Sequence record: MK327936.1
DNA: 64,000 nucleotides
Origin: Escherichia phage vB_EcoM_G2540
Reading direction: 5' to 3' (one strand)
A model generated the notes under the pieces. The model did not search any database. It was not told where the DNA came from and worked only from the letters and a program-made list of their open reading frames with translations. Below are positions 21,371-38,955 of the stretch, one piece after another (the first letter of the stretch is position 1; each line of letters begins with the position of its first letter). The position numbers and the translations under genes were made by a program.

Positions 21371-21715
21371 TTAAAAGAATTTAAACTTTTTCTTTGACCT
21401 TTTATTGAATGCATCTTGCAGTTGCATTGTAATACATTTTTCTACATGAGGAGCTAACTCAGCTTTTCTTTCTTGGTCAAGAACAGCAAAGTCCATTACA
21501 ACCTTTCCATCAACCCAATCCAGTTTAGTTACATACACTATATGTGTAGAACCATCTTCTAGTTTAATGACAATCTCCTGGATAACATTTTCCATAGCGG
21601 ATTTAATTATCTTAAGAGACTCATTAAAAAGACGTTCTTTTCTTTCTTCTTCCCCCTCCGAAGAGGGGGATTCATCGATAATTTCTAGATCTAAATCTAA
21701 ATCATCTTTATTCAT
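21371..21715 (-). CDS. 40: gp40-position protein (~114 aa from second Met)
   Basis: uvsX-40-41 synteny; ATGAATAA overlap with the uvsX stop if started at MNKDDLD. Confidence 0.55.
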   Translation of the reverse strand: MNKDDLDLDLEIIDESPSSEGEEERKERLFNESLKIIKSAMENVIQEIVIKLEDGSTHIVYVTKLDWVDGKVVMDFAVLDQERKAELAPHVEKCITMQLQDAFNKRSKKKFKFF

Positions 21716-22883
21716 TAAATTCTTCCATATCACTTAACTGTTCGAGGTCAGTTTCTAAATCAGCAGCTGATTTACTTTTACTTTCTGGAGATTTAAATTT
21801 TTCAACCTTTGAGTTAATCAATTCATCAACTTCAGCTTCAACAATTTCATTACTATCAATAGCACCTAACTGATAAGCACGTTTAATAGCATCTCGGAAT
21901 GGTTGATGCTTAAATAAAGGACCCCAGAATGTAGTGCAGTTAGTATCTTTTGCACGCCAAGATTTTTCTTCGCGAATCATCTCGCCGGTTTCTTCATCAA
22001 GAAATTCACGAGCATACCAACCATTTTTAGGTTTTACCACAAATCCTAATTCTAGAGCCATATCTAACAATCCAGAATAAGGATCGATACCACCGTCAAA
22101 TTTAACATCAATAAAGAATTTACTTTTTTCTTTAACGGTACGAGATTTTTCTACATTTAGAACAAATTGATACCCCTGAAGATCAGAACCATCTTTAATC
22201 TGACGCTTACCGATAATGAATACGGTATCAGCCGAATACATTACGCCTGTACCACCTGTCATCACGGTTTTACTAAACATTTCAATGGTTTCAATTGTAT
22301 GGTTAACTGCAACACATGGAATATTTTTAATGCTAAAATAAGGAGTAACAATACGGAATAATGACTTCAGTGATTTAGCACGAGTCATATCTGCCACAGA
22401 TTTTTCATTCAAGGCATCTTCAGTTTCTTTCTTAGAAGCCATATTACCAATTGAATCGATGAATACAATAACTTTTTCACCACGCTCAATAGTTTCAAGC
22501 TGATTCACCATATCAATTTTCAGCTGTTCAACTGACTGGATTGGCGTATGAATTACTCGTTCTGGGTCAACTCCCATAGACTTAAGATAAGCCGGAGTGA
22601 TACCAAACTCTGAGTCATAGAACAAACAGATAGCATCAGGATACTTATTCAAATAAGCTGCTACCATTGTCAGTGACATATTAGATTTAAAATGTTTAGA
22701 AGGCCCTGCGAAAATAGTTAAACCAGACTGCATACCACCGTCCAACGCACCGCTAATTGCAATATTCAGCATTGGAATTTTAGTACGAACCACATCCTTT
22801 TCATTAAAGAACTTGCTTTTAGTAAGCTCTGCAGTCATTTTAGAAGTGGAAGCTTTAATCAAACGGGATTTTAAATCAGACAT
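21708..22883 (-). CDS. uvsX: UvsX recombinase (RecA-like), 391 aa
   Basis: 391 aa as in T4; RecA core with Walker A (FAGPSKHFKS). Confidence 0.85.
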   Translation of the reverse strand: MSDLKSRLIKASTSKMTAELTKSKFFNEKDVVRTKIPMLNIAISGALDGGMQSGLTIFAGPSKHFKSNMSLTMVAAYLNKYPDAICLFYDSEFGITPAYLKSMGVDPERVIHTPIQSVEQLKIDMVNQLETIERGEKVIVFIDSIGNMASKKETEDALNEKSVADMTRAKSLKSLFRIVTPYFSIKNIPCVAVNHTIETIEMFSKTVMTGGTGVMYSADTVFIIGKRQIKDGSDLQGYQFVLNVEKSRTVKEKSKFFIDVKFDGGIDPYSGLLDMALELGFVVKPKNGWYAREFLDEETGEMIREEKSWRAKDTNCTTFWGPLFKHQPFRDAIKRAYQLGAIDSNEIVEAEVDELINSKVEKFKSPESKSKSAADLETDLEQLSDMEEFNE

Positions 22884-22999
22884 TATATTTTTCCATAGGC
22901 AGCATTATATTTTACTCATGTTTATAATAAAGGGTATTGTTATACCCAGAGTTTAACTACATCATATTTAATAATGAGATAATTATATCACCTTATCAT

Positions 23000-23113
23000 T
23001 TAGCATTTACTTTTTGATTTCTTACTTTCATAAAGGTCATACAGATACAATCCAGCAAGACTAACTGCGGCAAATATTCCTAAGCCAGTAATGAATAATA
23101 AAGGTCCTAACAT
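23000..23113 (-). CDS. candidate small hydrophobic peptide, 37 aa
   Basis: hand translation MLGPLLFITGLGIFAAVSLAGLYLYDLYESKKSKSKC in the uvsX-bgt intergenic region. Confidence 0.3.
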   Translation of the reverse strand: MLGPLLFITGLGIFAAVSLAGLYLYDLYESKKSKSKC

Positions 23114-23125
23114 ATTAACCTCAAA

Positions 23126-24203
23126 TTAAGCGGTGATATCGAGAACGCGAAGAAGCTCTTCTTGCCATTCTGATTTTAAACTTTGATACTTAAATAGGGT
23201 TTGATGTTGTATTGTAATCAATTCCCGCCTCAAGCACTCATTGGTTTTTAACTCATTTACTAAAGTTTCAAAATCATTTTTATTCTTAACGTAGAATCTA
23301 GGGTCGTCAATAATAAGATGCTCGCTATCAAACTCTTCATCGATAAGCATCACAGCATCTGATGCCATGGCCTCCCAGACTCTAATTGTGATAAAATTAT
23401 CATTGTAATCTTTATCACCAATGACTATAGTTGCTATCGCTTGGCTATTCGTGTCAATAACCAAATTTGATGCTATTTTTTTGACTGAATGATGGAGCTA
23501 CATTCCACGGAAATTTAGGATTTTTAAACTGTTTCTCTTTAATAGTTCCAAACATTTTAATATTTAAATTGGTATCAAAAAGAAATTCAACTATTTTAGA
23601 CTCTCGTTGCCCACCTCTAAACGCGCCGCAGTACACAACGTCATATTTTTTAATAGTTTGATTCGCAGGTTTAAGTTTCTGTGAATGAATAAAATATCTA
23701 TCTACAGGAAAGTAATCATACTCAAATTCTTTACCGTATCTTTCGGTTGTTTTCTTATGAGCCTTTTTAGCAATTTCTAGATTTCTGCCCTGAGATATTA
23801 CTTTAAAGTCAGATGACACAAATAAGTCTTCATCTTTGTATTCACTTGAAAATTTCTTTCTGCGAACTACCGGAAGAACTTGCATAAATCCAAGACGGCC
23901 ATCAGTAAAAATATAATAAATTTTACTTCTATATTCAGCCATCAATTTATATGAATTTAAAACGATTGGATTTTTCTTTCCACCGAAGAAATTGATAGCG
24001 CCATTAATTACTATTAGTCTATCGTATGAATTTATATCAGTTACTACATCAAATGATATAGTGTATTCAGTATTTCGCATTGAAATTATATCAACGGAAT
24101 GCCCTAATTCAGTTAAAGACCTGCCTATTAAAATAGTTTCGGCTGATGATACTATTTTAAAATCACTCACAGTATTACTTAAATTTAGAATAGCTATTTT
24201 CAT
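23126..24203 (-). pseudogene. bgt: beta-glucosyltransferase-like gene split by a frameshift in an A7 run
   Basis: 249-aa N-terminal ORF plus 112-aa C-terminal ORF together resemble recalled T4 beta-gt (~60% identity); frames switch at the T7 run 23476-23482; removing one base restores FSQKIASNLVIDTNSQAIA, colinear with T4. Confidence 0.65.
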
Positions 24204-25057
24204 GATATTTCCGTAACTTCAACTTTGTGAATAGCATTAAACTTATGAAATGCTTCTGATTTTTCTTTACGCGAAACGCACATGCGAAGAACCTTTAATG
24301 GCTCGTCTTCTTCACCCAACGATTTTCGTTTTTCAATATTAGAAGTTTTCCAACGAGCTTGCTCTGGAAACTCTCTATTGATTTGCTCAAGCGCTCTATT
24401 ATGTTTAGAATTACTACGAATTGAACTACACCCGCCAGGAGCTTGTGCTTTTCCAGATACAACTAGATATTTGAACAAGGCCAAATGCGGATAACCTTGA
24501 TTAATTAAATTGAGAAATGCATACATATCTTCGCATAAATCAATTTTTCCATACCCAATTTGTTCTGTCGTAAGTTTTCCGAGGTCATACCATGTATTCG
24601 TGAATCCATATGAATTTTCACGATAATTACCCCAAGATGAAGTAATTTTAAAAATTGGTAGACGAGCATGACCGTGATAATACCCGCAATCCATGGCATC
24701 TTCAACATATTGAATCAATTCATAGAACTGTTCACGAGTCAATTGATTGACTTTATCTACGCAACGCCGATCATCTCTTTTTCGCATTGAACTCATACGA
24801 ATAGTAGTATCATCGTCAATCATCCAGATTCGTTGACCTGCATACATATCAGTAATTGCTTTACGAGTACCAGCAATTCCATTTACATCATCAGGAATAG
24901 TTATAATTTTAGCTCTAGACCCATAGGCATCATAATAAGCTTTTTCTTCGTGTTCACGTACTACAATATGTGGTTCATAATCAGTCGGAAACATATCAAG
25001 GGCAGAAACTGCCCCTACACGTTGATAGCTTGGAATTACGAATTGAATCATTTCCAC
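24200..25057 (-). CDS. putative GT-A-fold glycosyltransferase, 285 aa
   Basis: N-terminal QFVIPSYQR resembles the GT2 VIPTYN motif; DxD-like IWMIDDDTT ~80 aa in; sits between bgt and gene 42. Confidence 0.4.
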   Translation of the reverse strand: MEMIQFVIPSYQRVGAVSALDMFPTDYEPHIVVREHEEKAYYDAYGSRAKIITIPDDVNGIAGTRKAITDMYAGQRIWMIDDDTTIRMSSMRKRDDRRCVDKVNQLTREQFYELIQYVEDAMDCGYYHGHARLPIFKITSSWGNYRENSYGFTNTWYDLGKLTTEQIGYGKIDLCEDMYAFLNLINQGYPHLALFKYLVVSGKAQAPGGCSSIRSNSKHNRALEQINREFPEQARWKTSNIEKRKSLGEEDEPLKVLRMCVSRKEKSEAFHKFNAIHKVEVTEIS

Positions 25058-25788
25058 TCACCGTTATAATCTTTTTTCACAATATGAGTTTCGCCAGTAT
25101 TCCACCAATGATCAACCAAGTAAAAATGACGAGAATATACATGAAGACTTCCAACATTCCATATAATAGAACCTGCTTTATACTGACGAGTTGAATCGCC
25201 TGCATTCAAATCAGATACTAATTTATCTAATACGTATTTTTGCCATGCATAATCATTACGGAATCCGAAGACCACGTCATTTGAGCGCATGCTTACTACT
25301 GCATTGACTTTCTTATCACGAATCAGGTACTGTACTGTATTAGTACACATGAAATCTGACATACCATCTTTATTGTAGTCAAATTGCATGGATGGACGAG
25401 TATAAATCATGATACCACGTCGAGAATCAGGATTTTGACCAAGTTCAGCTAAACACATATCATACTGGGCATAGTTATCTTCTGACCAAATAGCCCAACC
25501 ATAATTCGAGTTAATTTCACCTTTAGAAGATGCTACCTGCTGCCAAATTTTCGGTGTTTCACCTGGAATATCTTTAACAAACAAGCTTTTAGATTTATAC
25601 CATTCAAGTTCACGCTGAATGTATTCATCATTAAGAGCGCCAAAAATAAACGGTTCATCTGCTACAAATGATGCGCCAATAATTTCAATAGTTTTAACGC
25701 CAGTTTTATCAACTACGAAATCTTTTTCTTTTAATGCAGTTCCCAAATAAAAACGGATTTCTTCAACTGTCATAGAGTCATTAATCAT
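25048..25788 (-). CDS. 42: dCMP hydroxymethylase gp42, 246 aa
   Basis: 246 aa as in T4; N-terminus ...DSMTVEEIRFYLG... matches recalled gp42. Confidence 0.85.
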   Translation of the reverse strand: MINDSMTVEEIRFYLGTALKEKDFVVDKTGVKTIEIIGASFVADEPFIFGALNDEYIQRELEWYKSKSLFVKDIPGETPKIWQQVASSKGEINSNYGWAIWSEDNYAQYDMCLAELGQNPDSRRGIMIYTRPSMQFDYNKDGMSDFMCTNTVQYLIRDKKVNAVVSMRSNDVVFGFRNDYAWQKYVLDKLVSDLNAGDSTRQYKAGSIIWNVGSLHVYSRHFYLVDHWWNTGETHIVKKDYNGEWK

Positions 25789-25941
25789 TTAAACCTCAAT
25801 TGATGCATTCATATTTAAATTGTAACAGTAATAAACCCCACCCTATGATAAGAGTTGGAATCATAGCAGGAACTGTTACGCTATAGTATATACTTATTAT
25901 AACCATCAAGATTAAAAGCAACACTGTTATAATTTTGCTTT

Positions 25942-26193
25942 TCATTCCTTCTCTCTGATGATAATTACCTGATTTGGTTGTGCAGACTTTTTAGTTTCAC
26001 CCGCAATTGACCAAATAAATGTAATAAACCAACCAATAATTGACCAGTTAAACAGTAAAGACGTGAAAAAGATTCCTACTGTAGATTTTGACCCACGCAT
26101 CAAGGCGATAAACCACGGAAGCATGTATATAATAATAGCCAACACGCCTGAAACTAAAACCATAAAAATTGAACCTGCTACTAAAGTTTCCAT
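25942..26193 (-). CDS. imm: Imm superinfection-immunity membrane protein, 83 aa
   Basis: 83 aa with two hydrophobic helices; position between 42 and 43 as in T4. Confidence 0.65.
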   Translation of the reverse strand: METLVAGSIFMVLVSGVLAIIIYMLPWFIALMRGSKSTVGIFFTSLLFNWSIIGWFITFIWSIAGETKKSAQPNQVIIIREKE

Positions 26194-26208
26194 CTTTTCC
26201 TCACTTAG

Positions 26209-26580
26209 TCAAATTTTTACGCATGAATTATAAGAATTCACTACATACTCCATCGGAGCATTTTTACCAGTACGCCATTGGTAATTATTAGCCCAATTAG
26301 CCCAAAGCTCGGCGCAGTAGTTTTCAATTTTTTCTTCGCGTGTAATTACATCCGAATTACGATATGCTTGAGCAGATTCATCTGGACGAATAGCTTCGTC
26401 AAAATTCGCCTGCATTTGTTCTACTGTTTGCTTTGGAGCTTCTTTATAACACTTGACATTAGGATTATAAAATTTGCTTGAACAGTTTACAATTTTTCCT
26501 ACATCAGACTGATTTACTACCGGTCCTTGAGCTACACAACCAGTAAGACCTAATGCAATAACCAAAATAGCGATTTTCAT
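26209..26580 (-). CDS. putative lipoprotein, 123 aa
   Basis: signal peptide with lipobox (MKIAILVIALGLTGC). Confidence 0.5.
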   Translation of the reverse strand: MKIAILVIALGLTGCVAQGPVVNQSDVGKIVNCSSKFYNPNVKCYKEAPKQTVEQMQANFDEAIRPDESAQAYRNSDVITREEKIENYCAELWANWANNYQWRTGKNAPMEYVVNSYNSCVKI

Positions 26581-27009: not shown

Positions 27010-29706
27010 TCAGCCAAACAGGAAGTCTAACGAAGCTTTTTCTTCATAGTCCATACCAGCCGATTCACACATACCCGCAAGCGGTTTAACAAACGATTTT
27101 TGGAACAAAGTTGAGTAGTCAATCCAAGACAGTACGTCAGAACGAATTTCTTTTGGAAGTTCTGTTCCCGACGGCCAAGCAATGCACTTGTCACCAAATG
27201 GATTTCCTTCACGCAATGGAAGAACCATTACCTTATTTCCATCCAAAATTGGAGCTACACCTAAACCGCTAACAGCTCGACGATAAGTTAGCACACCACG
27301 AATATGGAACGGACATTTAAATCCTGGCCAACCTTTATCATCATATTTCGCTATATCGTTCGCAGTTTTTACTTCAGCAATAACTTTATAGTCAAGCTGA
27401 CGATATTCTTTCTCGAAGTTTTTGTAATATTCTTGGACAGACTCTTCACCTTCCTGAAGAATACGACGAATACTTTCTTCGAGAGCTTCTTGCACTGCTT
27501 TTGGTGTTGAACTCTGCTGAGTTTCCATACCCATGATTTTTAGATGCGGTTCAGCAAATCGCTTATCTTCCATATCATAAACGTTCAGAGCATAACGCTT
27601 TTTCGCTTTCCAAAATCCGCCAACGCCCTTTGAACCAAGCGGAGGACAAGAAATAGCTTCACGGTCCATATGCATCAGATGCTCGCGGTTATTCATATAA
27701 TCACATAACTCACGATATGCAACATCAATCATAGGTTCCATCTTTTTCTTACCGAACTGATTCATAAATTCAACTAAATCGTTCTGCTCTTTGAATCGGT
27801 CAAGACCAACTTTTTCAATAACTTTATCTACACAAACATATACCGAATCAGTATCACCTGCTGCAATGAAATCTTCGCCATTAGTTCCGCATACTTTATT
27901 CAGATATTCATTAATTTTACGAGCAATCCACTGAATACCAACTTGGCCGAAAATTGTGATAGCAGTAGCATTTCGCAAATCATAGTAACGGAAATGAATA
28001 TTACCAAGAGCACCGTAAAGGCTGTTAATAAGAATTTTACGGTTCAGCTGATTTGTATTAGCAAGTGTAGCCGCTTTTTCACATTCTTCAATCAAACTAT
28101 TGAGAACAGATTCAGTATAATTCGATAGTTCATTTAAGAAATCATCACTGAACTTAACATATCGTTCAACTTCAGGTTTAGTTGAACAAGACCCTGCGCC
28201 TTTCATAATAATCTTTTTAATAGCTTCGGCATTCATTTCTTCAGCGAACATTTTCTTTTTCCAGTCTTTACGCTGGAAAAATACTTTAGCGATTTCCTTT
28301 GGAATGATACCTTCTTGATGCTTATCGTACATCCATCCATTCGGAGAACAAGAATATTCATCACTCGGTTTAGGAGCTGTTCCTGCGATATATTCATGAA
28401 TTGGATGAACTTTAAACTGACCACGAATAGTCTCAGGACTAATGTTAACCTGACGAATAATGCTCGGATACAGAGACGTCAAGTCAAAACTCATAATATA
28501 TCGACGAGCAATTGGTTTAGGTTCAAATACAAATGCACCCGGAAAACTTTGTTTAACGTGCGAACCTTGTTGAGGAATAACCTTGTGTTCACTTTTCAGT
28601 GAGTTAAAAATAATAGCATCCCAAGTTTTAATAGGACTCATTACACCAGAAAAAGGCATTTTAGCGTAATAAGACATACTTAAAACTAGATCGATAAACC
28701 CGCGAATTTTATCAATTGCTTGAACTGATTCTACGTCAATGATGTTATAACTGATGTATCGTTGATGATTAGTCTCACGAAGTTTATTAATAGGACCGTC
28801 GTATGGTAATTTGCCCTTTTTGGTTTCATGTTGAGCAACTGATTCCAAAGAGAATGACGGCAAATTAGTAAATGCGAATTTCTTGTACAAATCTAAATAA
28901 TCAAGAATAGATACGCCATCAATAGAATAAATTTCTTTGCTACCGTACACATTTTGAATTAGTTTAGATTTTACCCGACCGATTGGAGAGAAGCGTTTCA
29001 TACTGCGTTCACCAAGAACCATTTTAACGCGATTCATGATATACGGAACGTCAAATCCCTCAATATTCCAACCAGTAAAAATAGCAGGTCGTTTCTGTTC
29101 CCAGAGATTGATATATTCCATGAGCATATCACGCTCATTATCGAATGGCATATAAATTACTCGGTCAAGAATTTCTTGAGGAACTTCATCACCACCTTCA
29201 CAGTCAAGCTTAGCAGCTAACTTTGCATCCCATTTTGATACTGAACCATACATTGAATTCAAAAGGTCGAAAACATAAAAACGATCATCAATTGAATCGT
29301 AATGAGTGATAGCATCAATTTCATATTCAGCTTTCATTGGGTCAGGAAATTTATCACCAGTAACCTCAATGTCACAGTTAGCTACACGAACAAATTTTCG
29401 GTCATAAACAATTTCTGAACCGTATGTATCACTGATATAAGCGAGTTTAAAATCGTTCATACCGAGAGCTTCGAGACCGATGTCTTCCATTCGTTTCATC
29501 CAATCTCGAGCATCTTTCATTGATGGAAATTTTTGAGGAGCGCAGTTTTTACCATAGATGTCTTTGTACTTTGACTCTTCCTTACAATGCCTAAACATAG
29601 TTGGAAGATATTCTACTTCACGAGTACGTTCCTTTCCGTTTTCATCAATATAACGTTCAACAATGTTATTTCCGACTGTTTCGATAGAGATATAAAATTC
29701 TTTCAT
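27010..29706 (-). CDS. 43: DNA polymerase gp43 (family B), 898 aa
   Basis: 898 aa as in T4; exonuclease and polymerase motifs (YGDTDS-type AAGDTDSVYV). Confidence 0.9.
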   Translation of the reverse strand: MKEFYISIETVGNNIVERYIDENGKERTREVEYLPTMFRHCKEESKYKDIYGKNCAPQKFPSMKDARDWMKRMEDIGLEALGMNDFKLAYISDTYGSEIVYDRKFVRVANCDIEVTGDKFPDPMKAEYEIDAITHYDSIDDRFYVFDLLNSMYGSVSKWDAKLAAKLDCEGGDEVPQEILDRVIYMPFDNERDMLMEYINLWEQKRPAIFTGWNIEGFDVPYIMNRVKMVLGERSMKRFSPIGRVKSKLIQNVYGSKEIYSIDGVSILDYLDLYKKFAFTNLPSFSLESVAQHETKKGKLPYDGPINKLRETNHQRYISYNIIDVESVQAIDKIRGFIDLVLSMSYYAKMPFSGVMSPIKTWDAIIFNSLKSEHKVIPQQGSHVKQSFPGAFVFEPKPIARRYIMSFDLTSLYPSIIRQVNISPETIRGQFKVHPIHEYIAGTAPKPSDEYSCSPNGWMYDKHQEGIIPKEIAKVFFQRKDWKKKMFAEEMNAEAIKKIIMKGAGSCSTKPEVERYVKFSDDFLNELSNYTESVLNSLIEECEKAATLANTNQLNRKILINSLYGALGNIHFRYYDLRNATAITIFGQVGIQWIARKINEYLNKVCGTNGEDFIAAGDTDSVYVCVDKVIEKVGLDRFKEQNDLVEFMNQFGKKKMEPMIDVAYRELCDYMNNREHLMHMDREAISCPPLGSKGVGGFWKAKKRYALNVYDMEDKRFAEPHLKIMGMETQQSSTPKAVQEALEESIRRILQEGEESVQEYYKNFEKEYRQLDYKVIAEVKTANDIAKYDDKGWPGFKCPFHIRGVLTYRRAVSGLGVAPILDGNKVMVLPLREGNPFGDKCIAWPSGTELPKEIRSDVLSWIDYSTLFQKSFVKPLAGMCESAGMDYEEKASLDFLFG

Positions 29707-32871: not shown

Positions 32872-33063
32872 TTAGTCATAATAATCAGTAACAGTCCAAG
32901 CTTCATTTCTATTGGACATTATTTTTGTATATTCTGCTTTAAATGCATTCCTAAGCATAGATTCAGTAACTATATGCTCTTCATTAGAAAAATTATTTCT
33001 CAGAATATATCGTTTTATTTCAGGAATAGTTAATAGATGCTGTCCGGTTGAATATTCTGCCAC
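32872..33063 (-). CDS. small conserved protein (45.2 position), 63 aa
   Basis: size and position. Confidence 0.5.
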   Translation of the reverse strand: MAEYSTGQHLLTIPEIKRYILRNNFSNEEHIVTESMLRNAFKAEYTKIMSNRNEAWTVTDYYD

Positions 33064-33073
33064 AGTTCCTCCG

Positions 33074-33081
33074 TATAAATA
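33074..33081 (+). promoter_or_regulatory. late promoter TATAAATA on the plus strand
   Basis: exact TATAAATA at 33074-33081, 34 bp upstream of the HNH ORF start, followed by an AAAGGA Shine-Dalgarno. Confidence 0.55.
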
Positions 33082-33114
33082 TGTTTATCACTCGCTGTAT
33101 CAAAAGGATATGTT

Positions 33115-33831
33115 ATGAATTATAAACTAATTTATGAAAAGTTAATCTCTAATGCTAAATCTCGAAAACTTGATTGTTATACTGAATCTCATCACATTAT
33201 ACCACGCTGTTTAAATGGCAGCGATGATGCTTCAAACTTAGTAGATTTAACACCAGAAGAGCACTATGTAGCTCATCAACTTTTAGTAAAAATTTATCCT
33301 TCTGAACCAAAATTAGTCTATGCTGCTAACATGATGACAGTTTCTACGAAATACGCTAAACGCAACAATAAAACTTTCGGTTGGATTCGTCGTAAACTCT
33401 GGGAAATAGAAAAGAATAAAGAATTCTCCCAGGAGACACGAAAGAAAATGTCTGATGCAGTAGCTAATAAAGCAAGACTAACTTGTCCTCATTGCGGTAA
33501 GTCTGGATTAAGCGGGAATATGAATCGTTGGCATTTTGATAACTGCCCAAATCACCCTAATCCTAAAGTTAGACCACCAATGTCTAAAGAACACAGAAAT
33601 AATATCTCAAACGGGCTTAAAGCAATCGTTCTTGAAGAAACATCCTGCGAATTCTGCGGAATGATAGGCAAGAAATGCGTTATCGCAGCGCATAGAAATT
33701 TCTGCAAGAAAAATCCAAATGGACGCAAGAAAACTGAAAAGACTGGTACTTGCGTCCATTGTGGTAAAGTTACCACTTTCGGAAATTTATCAAGATGGCA
33801 TAATGATAACTGTAAATATAAACTTAGCTAA
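33115..33831 (+). mobile_element. free-standing HNH homing endonuclease, 238 aa, with three C-terminal zinc-ribbon repeats
   Basis: HNH motif ESHHIIPRCLNGSDDASNLVDLTPEEHYVAHQ; three Cys-rich repeats (CPHCGK...RWHFDNC, CEFCG...AAHRNFC, CVHCGK...RWHNDNC); opposite strand to neighbours. Confidence 0.8.
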
Positions 33832-35512
33832 TCTTAGCTAAACTAAATCTACCAACTTTTTCCATCTGAATATGCTGACCATATTCTTGTGGGTCATGGT
33901 CTTTATGTGAAATTATGAAGAAGTTGGTATCCTTCAAACCATCTAAAATTTTAGCTACATTTTTAATACCTTCAGCATCAAATGCACCGTCATACACTTC
34001 ATCAAGAAATAAACAACTTATTTTAACACCTGAAACTTTTTCAGCAATATCACGCCAAGTAAATAAAAGAGCAATATCAATTCGTGCTTTTTCACCTTGA
34101 CTGAATGAAGCATAACTAAAATCTTCACGACCACGGGATTTAATTGTCTCATTAAATTCTTCATCTAATGTAAACACATAATCCGCTTCCATTATTTTAA
34201 GATAATGGTTAATCTGCTTATTAAATAATGGAATGTACTTTTTAATAATAGCACCTTTAATACCAGAATCTTTGAGCATATCAGTCAAAATTCCTCGGTG
34301 GTATTTTTCCATTACTAAATTAGTTTTTGTCTTAACAATTTTATCAAGTTCTTCTTGAAGCAGTGCTATTTCATCAGCATGGTCAATAAACTCAGAAGAT
34401 GCTTTTTCTATAGCCGCTTTAACTTTTTTAGCTTTATCTACCGTCGTGATTAGAGATTGCTTTTTATTGCGAATATCATTTGCCAGCGACTGCTGGGTTT
34501 TAATATTATCTCGGTATTCATCAACAAGAACTTTTAAATTATCACGATGTGTTGAAAGCTGTTCAAACGAATGCGTGCATTCAGAAACTTTATCTTTAAT
34601 TTTAGAAACAACTTTATCACCGGAACTTAATTGTGACAAACAGGTTGGACATAATCCACCTTCGTGATACATATTAATGACTTTATTATATGAGTCAATT
34701 TTTGATTTAATTAAAACTGCTTCTTGACCGATTTTATTAAATGCATCAGTCGGGTCTTCATCCAAAACAATATTAACTAATCTTTCATTAGCTTCTTCTA
34801 TTTCCGATTTTAGCGTTCTAGCTTCTTTTGCCAAATCATCGTACATATTTTGCAGACGAGTAAGGTTGTCACCCGTTAATTTTTTCTGGCGTTCAACGTT
34901 ATCATTATATATTTTAATTTGTTGGATAATACTATCTTTTTTAACATCAAGCACTTGGTTCTGCGAATTTAATTCACGTATTAGTGCTTTATTAAGCTTA
35001 TCCATTTCAGCTAATGTTCCTACCTCGAGCAGGTCTTCCACAAGCTTTCTTCGCGCAGGGGTCGACAAACCCATGAAAGGGGTATACCCTGCTGTACCAA
35101 GGACAACAATCTGCTTGAAACTGGCATATGACATTCCGATAAGCTGTTCAAATTCTGCTTGGAAATCTTTACTGCTGGCAGATTCATTAAGACGTGTACC
35201 GTTAACGGTGATTTCGAAAACGTTTGGTTTTTGTCCTCTTTTGATATAGTACTTTTTCTCATCATATTCCATCCACAGTTCAACTAAAAGTTCTTTCTTA
35301 TTTGTGCTGTTTATTAATTGACCTTTCTTTACATCACGGAATGGCTTGCCAAAAAGCCCAAATGTGATGGCTTCTAACATAGTAGACTTACCACCGCCAT
35401 TTCGTCCAGTAATAAGAGTTTTTTGAACCTTATCTAATTGAATGTCAATAGGATTTCCACCTACTGACATTATATTTTGATACCTAACTCGGTTTAGTTT
35501 AAAATTCTTCAC
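33824..35512 (-). CDS. 46: recombination nuclease subunit gp46 (Rad50/SbcC-like ATPase), 562 aa
   Basis: Walker A GRNGGGKST, long coiled-coil middle, signature/Walker B at C-terminus; T4 length ~560. Confidence 0.85.
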   Translation of the reverse strand: MKNFKLNRVRYQNIMSVGGNPIDIQLDKVQKTLITGRNGGGKSTMLEAITFGLFGKPFRDVKKGQLINSTNKKELLVELWMEYDEKKYYIKRGQKPNVFEITVNGTRLNESASSKDFQAEFEQLIGMSYASFKQIVVLGTAGYTPFMGLSTPARRKLVEDLLEVGTLAEMDKLNKALIRELNSQNQVLDVKKDSIIQQIKIYNDNVERQKKLTGDNLTRLQNMYDDLAKEARTLKSEIEEANERLVNIVLDEDPTDAFNKIGQEAVLIKSKIDSYNKVINMYHEGGLCPTCLSQLSSGDKVVSKIKDKVSECTHSFEQLSTHRDNLKVLVDEYRDNIKTQQSLANDIRNKKQSLITTVDKAKKVKAAIEKASSEFIDHADEIALLQEELDKIVKTKTNLVMEKYHRGILTDMLKDSGIKGAIIKKYIPLFNKQINHYLKIMEADYVFTLDEEFNETIKSRGREDFSYASFSQGEKARIDIALLFTWRDIAEKVSGVKISCLFLDEVYDGAFDAEGIKNVAKILDGLKDTNFFIISHKDHDPQEYGQHIQMEKVGRFSLAKIS

Positions 35513-35959: not shown

Positions 35960-36975
35960 TGTGTTGCCTCTACATATAACTGATTTGCATATTGAATAAG
36001 TGCTTCACGGTCAGAATCAGTGATGTCTGGAATTGCATTAATGTATTCTTCCATCAACGTCTGAAGAGATTGAACTTCAACTTCTTCACTTTCATCTGAC
36101 TCGACAGAGTTATCAATCTTTGACACAACTCGTAATGAATGCACAACTTTTTCTAGTTCAGATTCGAACTTCGTTAGATTTTTGTCTACTTCAGTTACTA
36201 TAACACGTACTGATAGATTTGTAAAATCTTTATAGTCAATTTTTCCTTTAAATGGATAATGAATTCTGCGATGCCAAGTAGTGTTGTTTGGAATAAATTC
36301 CATTCGTTCTGTTTCTGTATCAAACATCCAGAACCCGCGAGGGTCATTCTCGTCACCTGCAGTTAGTGTCCATGGTGTCCCAATATATCTGACATTTGCA
36401 GCCTCAGAGATAGTATGGAAGTGACCAGACCACACTTCTTTATAAGTCTTAAGGAAATCAGGTTCAAGACCGTGAGATTTCATTCCTTTATAAAAATAAA
36501 ATCCATTCAGTTCCCAGTGACCAACACAAAAAGAAGCAGATGAAGTTTTGATGTGTTCAAGAATTTCACCAGTATTTTCTTCGCACATCCAAGGAATCAA
36601 ATCAATCAAACATCCGTCAAAATCTACTGTAGTAGGCTTATCATATACTTTAACATTAGGATATTTAGCCAAAAGCTCAGTAGAGGCATTTGGATGCATT
36701 ACATTTTTGTAGTGGAGATCGTGATTTCCTACAATAGTATGTAATGTGATTCCAGCGTCATCAAGCATTTGAACTATTTCACGGGCAAACTCCATAGTTT
36801 TATGCGTGATTGCTTTTCGCACATCAAAAATATCACCATATTGAATCCATACAGTAATTCCATTTTTCTTAGAATATTCTATCGCTTGCTTAATTCCATC
36901 AATTTGAATACCGCGAATCCACTCATCATCAGCTTTAACGCCTAAATGCCAATCACCCAAGTTTAGTATTTTCAT
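35956..36975 (-). CDS. 47: recombination nuclease subunit gp47 (Mre11/SbcD-like), 339 aa
   Basis: 339 aa as in T4; phosphoesterase motifs (LGDWHLG, GNHD). Confidence 0.85.
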   Translation of the reverse strand: MKILNLGDWHLGVKADDEWIRGIQIDGIKQAIEYSKKNGITVWIQYGDIFDVRKAITHKTMEFAREIVQMLDDAGITLHTIVGNHDLHYKNVMHPNASTELLAKYPNVKVYDKPTTVDFDGCLIDLIPWMCEENTGEILEHIKTSSASFCVGHWELNGFYFYKGMKSHGLEPDFLKTYKEVWSGHFHTISEAANVRYIGTPWTLTAGDENDPRGFWMFDTETERMEFIPNNTTWHRRIHYPFKGKIDYKDFTNLSVRVIVTEVDKNLTKFESELEKVVHSLRVVSKIDNSVESDESEEVEVQSLQTLMEEYINAIPDITDSDREALIQYANQLYVEATQ

Positions 36976-37576
36976 GGTGTCTTTTCCATCCTAATTTAGC
37001 TGCTTTTGAAACCAGTTCTTTAATTTTTCCTTTTGTCCATTCAGGACCAGGAGGTTCATGACATAACATTTGCTTAACTCCGTTATTATACCATTTTTTA
37101 CCTTTATTATGTGATGAAGCTTTAAATTTATTTGACCTTCCTTTTACATAACCTTCTGGAATATAAGGCAAAAAGGCAGATTTTCCTGTTAATGGATCAT
37201 GTGAATGTATATTTCCTTTACAATTATGAGAACCATATAATGGATGATTTTGTCCTTTATTATCTCTTCCAAATGAACCTTTTGGAGCAGCATATGACAT
37301 ATTAAAGAATAATGGATTTTTAACTGCATCATGCAATCGTTGATAATATAACTCGCATTTAATAGCTTCTTCACGCGTATCAAATTCAGCTAAAATGCAT
37401 GAATCAAATAAGTGAGGATTATCTGAAAGCTCTTTATTATAAATTTTCTTATACTTTTTAGATAAAACTGAACCATGATATCCAGCTAAATGCCTATCTA
37501 AAGACGTAGATCCAATATAAAAAGGAGGAAGTTTATCTCCACTATATATTGTTAAATAAGTTATATATTTTTTCAT
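36953..37576 (-). mobile_element. GIY-YIG (Seg-like) homing endonuclease, 207 aa
   Basis: GIY-YIG module YITYLTIY...FYIGSTS with downstream Arg and Glu; basic C-terminal region; 3' end overlaps the gene 47 start by 23 nt. Confidence 0.7.
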
Positions 37577-37736: not shown

Positions 37737-37754
37737 AAAGGGCCGAAGCCCTTT
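37737..37754 (-). terminator. intrinsic terminator after alpha-gt
   Basis: aaaggg-ccgaa-gcccttt hairpin overlapping/adjacent to the alpha-gt stop. Confidence 0.5.
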
Positions 37755-38955
37755 ATTTTGTAATAATGTCAAACTGTTCTTTAAAGCAGAAGCTTGAATC
37801 TTGATGCTGATACAAAAATTCATATGCTTTTTCACGCTCACGGTCATAAAGAGCTCGGTCAGATGACAGTTCTTTAATACGTTCAAATGTTGATTCCATA
37901 TCATTTTCATCAAACCAAATGATACCGCTATCATGCGAGGTCAAAGGAGTATTATCAACACGGAATTTTAAATTTTCGCCAGTAGATTTCCAAAATACCG
38001 GAATTGTTCCACATGCACCAAGCTCGAGATGAGTATATTCTAAAGAGCGCTGTAGATATTTTTTATCCAACTTACTCAACTGATAACCAAATCCGGATTT
38101 ACTCATACGTTCAAGCATTTCGCTATTTACATAACGATCGAGAATTTGCGTTGGTAAATTAGGAGCAATTTTAATTTGGTCTACTTGATGAAGACGATAA
38201 TACTCGTATGGAATTCCTTTTTCTTTAATAGGAATGAACGCTGGAGAACGTTCCAGACCTTCCATAATAGTACTTAGTCCTGCAGGTTTAAGATGTTTTT
38301 CGTGAAAATCAAACATCTGATAAAAACCTTTCCATGTAGTCGTACGACCAATCCAACGGTTGACATTCATGTTAATTTCAGAAACATCTTTCCAGTAGGT
38401 TGACCGAACCTTCGCAATATCCATAGGAGGCTGAAAGTTATATACGGTCGGCGCTTCTTCAATATCATCAAACAGAGAAACAGTTTCTGGATACCATTCT
38501 TTCATCAGAACTTTATTAAAATCACCATTATCAGAATGGCTAAAAATAACATCAGCTCGACGAACAGTTTCTTCTAATCCCAAATTTCGACGCAAAGAAA
38601 GAGAAGAATGGTCATGTTGATAAACTACAACACGAACCGAAGGTTTAATGTTATCAATAATTTTTTTATAGTTATTAATAGTGTCTTCTTCAACTGAAGT
38701 AGCAGGAACTGAATTGATAATTAGAATATCACAATCATTTACCAGCTTAAGTGTTTTATCGTATTCTTTTGCCAATAAAACCGGAATTGAAAATGATTTA
38801 TAATCATGCGCACAGTTACGAGTAAATGATTTATCTTTGGCATAAACCAAAGTTACTTCATGACCATTTTTAATAAACCAATCACGTTGCTCGAGTGAGA
38901 ATTTTGTTACACCACAACCTTCAAGACCTCGAGCCATAAAAATACATACTTTCAT
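37753..38955 (-). CDS. agt: DNA alpha-glucosyltransferase, 400 aa
   Basis: 400 aa; N-terminus M.VCIFMARGLEGCGVTKFSLEQRDWFIKNGHEVTLVYAKDKSF closely matches recalled T4 alpha-gt. Confidence 0.85.
   Translation of the reverse strand: MKVCIFMARGLEGCGVTKFSLEQRDWFIKNGHEVTLVYAKDKSFTRNCAHDYKSFSIPVLLAKEYDKTLKLVNDCDILIINSVPATSVEEDTINNYKKIIDNIKPSVRVVVYQHDHSSLSLRRNLGLEETVRRADVIFSHSDNGDFNKVLMKEWYPETVSLFDDIEEAPTVYNFQPPMDIAKVRSTYWKDVSEINMNVNRWIGRTTTWKGFYQMFDFHEKHLKPAGLSTIMEGLERSPAFIPIKEKGIPYEYYRLHQVDQIKIAPNLPTQILDRYVNSEMLERMSKSGFGYQLSKLDKKYLQRSLEYTHLELGACGTIPVFWKSTGENLKFRVDNTPLTSHDSGIIWFDENDMESTFERIKELSSDRALYDREREKAYEFLYQHQDSSFCFKEQFDIITK

Follow-up and report, generated by a model that had tools for sequence, protein, structure and literature searches.

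The closest described system is the glucosyltransferase of phages T2 and T6 (ba-gt or ggt), which adds a beta-1,6-linked glucose to alpha-glucosyl-hmC to give gentiobiosyl-hmC, a product that accounts for about 5% of the cytosines of T2 and 72% of those of T6 (PMC6024577, PMC13216743, PMC13390438). The T4-type enzymes glucosylate hmC itself, whereas the T2/T6 enzyme, of the TAGT family, glucosylates the glucose that is already attached (PMC13216743). Tequatrovirus phages of the Durham collection that carry alpha-gt together with a TAGT gene were found by LC-MS to contain gentiobiosyl-hmC and to lack beta-glucosyl-hmC (PMC13390438).

Here we describe a TAGT gene in a stretch of 64,000 nucleotides (the window) from Escherichia phage vB_EcoM_G2540 (MK327936.1), a T4-like coliphage of the genus Tequatrovirus. 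A reading of the letters alone, referred to below as the original prediction, had proposed a GT-A-like transferase at this place, lying as an extra gene between a bgt-like gene and gene 42 and possibly adding a second or alternative sugar. We identify it as the T2/T6-type beta-glucosyl-HMC-alpha-glucosyltransferase (TAGT family, PF20691) with a probability of about 0.93.

Gene location and family membership

Every gene in this part of the window lies on the minus strand, in the order gene 43 (27010-29706), imm.1, imm, 42.1, gene 42 (25048-25788), the TAGT gene (24200-25051), the bgt-like gene (23126-24203) and uvsX (21708-22883). Gene 42, assigned from the ORF listing, Pfam and the annotation of its homologues, encodes the dCMP hydroxymethylase that makes the hmC precursor. 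An intact alpha-glucosyltransferase gene, also on the minus strand (37753-38955), encodes a GT-B enzyme of 400 amino acids that matches the Pfam AGT profile over its full length (E 3.9e-237) and is 100% identical to that of phage AR1. By synteny, the TAGT gene is placed between gene 42 and uvsX just as its RB14 and T6 counterparts are. The best match of the 2.9 kb around it, at 98.2% DNA identity, is to UPWr_E2, vB-Eco-KMB26 and nine other Escherichia phages.

The maximal ORF runs from a GTG at 25057 to 24200 and encodes 285 amino acids, the length originally given. The ORF indeed exists on the minus strand, but the real start is likely the ATG at 25051-25049, two codons further in, which would give a protein of 283 amino acids beginning MIQFVIPSYQR. 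This ATG is preferred because all homologues begin with MIQF or MK.IQF and because it overlaps the stop codon of gene 42 in an ATGA (25048-25051, minus), as read directly from the sequence. M1 is invariant in all aligned homologues. The ATG is preceded by GGTGAGTGG, with a Shine-Dalgarno-like GGTGAG/GAGTGG immediately 5' of it. The GTG at 25057 was discarded as a start, since every annotated homologue and all aligned homologues use the ATG at 25051. At the other end of the gene a second ATGA (24200-24203, minus) joins its stop codon to the start of the bgt-like gene, confirming the stop/start overlap described earlier. A promoter and terminator scan of 22700-26300 gave chance-level counts (20 against 17.4 ± 4.7 and 2 against 1.6 ± 1.3).

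The family assignment was made from Pfam, PHROG and the comparison with T2 and RB14. PF20691 (TAGT, TET-associated glycosyltransferase) was matched with 38.8 bits, above the gathering cut-off of 27.5, and residues 5-209 of the protein align to profile positions 2-205 of 205. The modest score reflects the divergence of the T-even clade within the family. PHROG 842, 'beta-glucosyl-HMC-alpha-glucosyltransferase', was matched with an E-value of 2.2e-89. A tblastn search gave matches in 688 phage records; in 471 the identity is 95-99%, a set that includes T2, the RB3/5/6/7/9/10/14 series and many Shigella and Yersinia phages. The ggt of T2 (MH751506) shows 98.2% amino-acid identity to the window protein, and RB14 ORF041c is identical to it over residues 1-274; the latter was reported to be 99% identical to the T2 beta-alpha-glucosyltransferase Q06717 (Thomas et al. 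2018, PMC6024577). The distant homologues all carry the same TAGT domain, and about 2,100 representative metagenome clusters match the family at E ≤ 0.001. T4 has no TAGT homologue; its DNA similarity to the window ends with gene 42 and resumes weakly (65%) in the bgt-like gene. The gene is thus already known and named, an ordinary T-even DNA-modification enzyme, which the original prediction had overlooked.

Among the relatives, codon 10 of ggt in the T6 record MH550421 (L005, 2951-2953) is an amber TAG instead of CAA, and the gene is annotated from Met21. Judged from this codon, the sequenced T6 stock may be without a functional ba-gt, although T6 is the textbook gentiobiosyl phage.

Two further ORFs were noticed elsewhere in the window. 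A stretch of about 0.8 kb (33058-33843), where KMB26 has 72 bp, contains the only large plus-strand ORF of the region (33115-33831, 238 amino acids), with a weak HNH match under the cut-off (E 0.007), and probably encodes a free-standing homing endonuclease. A minus-strand ORF of 207 amino acids (36953-37576), located between gene 47 and alpha-gt and mostly missing from KMB26, shows a weak GIY-YIG match, also under the cut-off (E 3e-4), and is probably a seg-like homing endonuclease.

Predicted fold and candidate active-site residues

A PDB sequence search with the TAGT protein returned nothing at E ≤ 1, and the family profile gave a single marginal match, to AvpGT (9jma), at E 0.09. As there is no solved relative, the fold was examined through a predicted model. 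The AlphaFold2 model has a mean pLDDT of 92.1 and a pTM of 0.90 and consists of a single alpha/beta/alpha domain of Rossmann-like type, whose fourth strand ends in a DxD motif. Its structural matches are exclusively GT-A enzymes, many of them inverting beta-glycosyltransferases (TarS, TarP, SpsA and AvpGT). Like the GT2-like inverting enzymes SpsA, TarS, TarP, K4CP, AvpGT and WrtF, the TAGT protein has a GT-A fold in which the first-strand motif and the DxD sit at the same places. No Pfam profile other than TAGT was matched at E ≤ 0.1, the GT2 profile (PF00535) included; the protein is therefore GT2-like by fold and not a sequence-level member of GT2. The T4-type GT-B profiles, alpha-gt (PF11440) and beta-gt (PF09198), were likewise both unmatched, and the model has one domain. 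The GT-A fold, and its distinctness from the GT-B alpha- and beta-glucosyltransferases, were thus correctly foreseen.

The two short motifs on which that forecast was built lie at residues 3-11 and 75-83. To assess them, 48 homologues, down to 13% identity, were gathered and aligned with the window protein (49 sequences). QFVIPSYQR (residues 3-11; 25019-25045, minus) covers the first beta strand of the model (residues 3-7) and the following loop, and is the counterpart of 'IPTYNR', the strand with which GT2 enzymes bind the nucleotide sugar, as aligned to AvpGT. IWMIDDDTT (residues 75-83; 24803-24829, minus) contains D79-D80-D81 (24809-24817), the putative DxD metal- and UDP-sugar-binding motif, which follows the strand of residues 74-78, where a DxD usually lies. 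The DDD, together with R11 and R63, is invariant in 49/49 sequences, while I6 is kept in 48/49 and P7 in 46/49. Both motifs are therefore conserved across the alignment and, on sequence grounds, are far above chance level. The marginal profile alignment to AvpGT pairs IPSYkR with IPTYNR and DDD with DDD. 'ED' motifs of GT2 enzymes are the basis for assigning a catalytic base to E174-D175 (24527-24532, minus), whose D175 is found in 43/49 homologues as part of the ED dipeptide. We infer that D175 is a candidate for the base in catalysis by an inverting GT-A enzyme; the residue roles, taken from the weak alignment to GT2 enzymes (E 0.09), are putative. The last 9 residues form a low-confidence tail of the model (pLDDT about 53) and are predicted to be disordered.

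The divergent beta-gt cassette

A 1.3-kb cassette (22919-24227, minus), which takes in the 3' end of the TAGT gene, replaces 61 bp of T2/RB14-type phages in the comparison with RB14. It alters the final 9 codons of that gene (24200-24227, minus), which read KVEVTEIS-stop in the window and PIAVD-stop in T2/RB14-type phages, and it brings in the bgt-like gene (23126-24203, minus), identified from the ORF listing, Pfam (T4-Gluco-transf), PHROG and homologue comparison as a GT-B enzyme. SegA, found in T4 between beta-gt and uvsX, is absent here. The intact protein, 358 amino acids in UPWr_E2 and KMB26, is 55% identical to T4 beta-gt; the beta-gt proteins of T4-like phages of Serratia, Salmonella, Citrobacter and Enterobacter share 44-47% identity with it, and it matches T4 BGT structures with an E-value of 7.5e-124. 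In the alignment it keeps the equivalents of T4 D100, R191, R195, R269 and E272, residues with roles in T4 BGT.

At ≥99% identity the bgt-like gene is found in 11 phage records only, and it is these 11 that show the tandem with the TAGT gene. They include KMB26 (OR539218), UPWr_E2, vB_EcoM-CHD2BS1, G3F6 and several vB_EcoM-CHD/G3F/G3G/PM phages. KMB26 also carries alpha-gt and, out of 753 phages, was described as the only one "encoding all three GT types" (PMC13216743). Given these 11 records and that mention, the three-transferase arrangement is rare yet already in print. It is the only unusual aspect of the locus, as the TAGT ORF itself is ordinary.

The window differs from these phages in an A7 run (23476-23482, minus), where the intact relatives have A6. 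The one extra A shifts the frame by +1 and splits the bgt-like gene into ORFs of 249 and 112 amino acids, so that the downstream bgt-like gene of the original prediction is a bgt homologue indeed, but a broken one. The remaining 1.1 kb of the gene is identical to that of UPWr_E2, and the frameshift was seen in none of the 11 tandem-carrying database phages. Between the window and KMB26 there are four 1-nt homopolymer indels in about 37 kb. The extra A may reflect a genuine inactivation or switch, or it may stem from a homopolymer sequencing error.

The three other single-base homopolymer differences from KMB26 lie at about 26214, 26904 and 29789. The first of them is at the 3' end of imm.1 (DUF5481), where the ORF is shortened to 123 amino acids compared with a 381-nt gene in KMB26. 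In another record, PP434423.1 (phage 236Ecol005PP), the beta-gt match likewise falls into two pieces, and two CDSs are annotated for it. Disruption of beta-gt may therefore recur in phages such as 236Ecol005PP.

If the frameshift is real, the DNA of the window phage would be T2/T6-like, including about 25% bare hmC. It is this share of bare hmC that renders T2, T6 and T4 delta-b-gt susceptible to Brig3, a glycosylase acting on hmC (bioRxiv 10.64898/2026.02.25.707755); with beta-gt intact, these sites would presumably be filled.

A wider scenario is possible but doubtful. A T2/T6-type phage with alpha-gt and a TAGT gene might have given rise to the KMB26-like lineage by taking up the cassette, which became fused through the ATGA to the TAGT 3' end. 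Phages with the intact beta-gt would then carry alpha-glucosyl, gentiobiosyl and beta-glucosyl forms and close the gap of roughly 25% bare hmC that exposes T2/T6 to hmC-targeting defences such as Brig3, and the change in the A run of the window might be a real, reversible on/off switch and not a sequencing error.

Proposed reaction and comparison with known T-even systems

Based on the identity, family, fold, conserved motifs and gene context of the protein observed here, and with the reaction taken over by analogy from the characterised T2/T6 enzyme, we propose the following pathway. Gene 42 would supply hydroxymethyl-dCMP and the DNA polymerase would build hmC into DNA. The alpha-gt encoded at 37753-38955 would place an alpha-linked glucose on most hmC, forming the acceptor. 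With UDP-glucose as donor, the TAGT enzyme would then attach a second glucose at the 6-OH of the alpha-glucose with anomeric inversion, giving beta-1,6-glucosyl-alpha-glucosyl-hmC (gentiobiosyl-hmC) in duplex DNA. In its single GT-A domain, strand beta-1 (IPSYQR) and the DDD at 79-81 would hold UDP-glucose and a divalent cation, and D175 would be the likely catalytic base. The formation of a beta linkage from UDP-alpha-glucose is inverting, in agreement with the inverting enzymes TarS, TarP, SpsA and AvpGT as structural matches. The gene would form one expression unit with gene 42, with translational coupling through ATGA both to gene 42 and to the downstream gene. The amount of product in the window phage is not predictable from the protein, since T2 and T6 differ as widely as 5% and 72% despite enzymes that are about 98% identical.

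Two other readings of the ORF were considered. A member of the same family might here use another acceptor or donor, acting on beta-glucosyl-hmC, on both anomers or with another sugar, so that the modification would be unlike that of T2 and T6. TAGT homologues of 64-66% identity do adjoin beta-gt genes in phages that infect other hosts, for example Enterobacter phage CC31, Citrobacter phage Merlin and Salmonella phage S16; in the window an ATGA joins the TAGT gene to the beta-gt gene; and whether TAGTs discriminate the linkage type was left undecided in PMC13216743. However, residues 1-274 are identical to those of RB14, a phage without beta-gt, so that the difference from RB14 is confined to the disordered 9-residue tail; moreover, the beta-gt-like gene of the window is frameshifted while its alpha-gt is intact. 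We therefore regard a changed specificity as improbable. An inactive remnant, or a chance ORF without a role in DNA modification, is more improbable still. The amber codon in MH550421 speaks for this reading to the extent that loss of ggt seems tolerable in a laboratory stock. Against it, the ORF of the window is full-length and intact, keeps all family-invariant residues, has near-identical copies in hundreds of phages, gives a model of high confidence and retains translational coupling on both sides.

On the preferred reading, a T2/T6-type enzyme, the DNA of the window phage is predicted to be T2/T6-like, with alpha-glucosyl-hmC, gentiobiosyl-hmC and some bare hmC, which bears on the restriction and glycosylase defences that the phage can evade. 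The suggestion of a second or alternative sugar gains support, as the near-identical T2/T6 enzyme adds a second glucose and the Durham phages with alpha-gt and a TAGT gene contain the corresponding product, which answers the distribution check proposed with the original prediction. The motif-based reasoning behind it was sound, and the ORF is now re-identified as a classical T-even DNA-modification enzyme of GT-A rather than GT-B type. It is an extra transferase relative to T4, but in most T2/T6-like phages it simply occupies the slot of T4 beta-gt.

Compared with ba-gt/ggt of T2 and T6 (Q06717, Q06718; RB14 ORF041c), the window encodes the same protein at the same place after gene 42 with the same alpha-gt partner, and differs in the tail described above; in T2-type phages uvsX follows after a short intergenic region, whereas in the window the beta-gt-like gene overlaps the TAGT stop. 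T4 beta-gt (GT63) and alpha-gt (GT72) share the pathway and the donor UDP-glucose with the TAGT enzyme, and T4 beta-gt sits in the syntenic slot, but both are GT-B enzymes unrelated to it in fold and sequence. KMB26 and the 10 similar records have the same order of gene 42, TAGT gene, divergent beta-gt and uvsX at 98.2% DNA identity, with an intact beta-gt-like gene (358 amino acids) where the window has the +1 frameshift. The coupling of the TAGT gene to a third transferase, the divergent beta-gt that is broken here, thus offers a small, testable case of how T-even phages exchange DNA-modification genes as modules.
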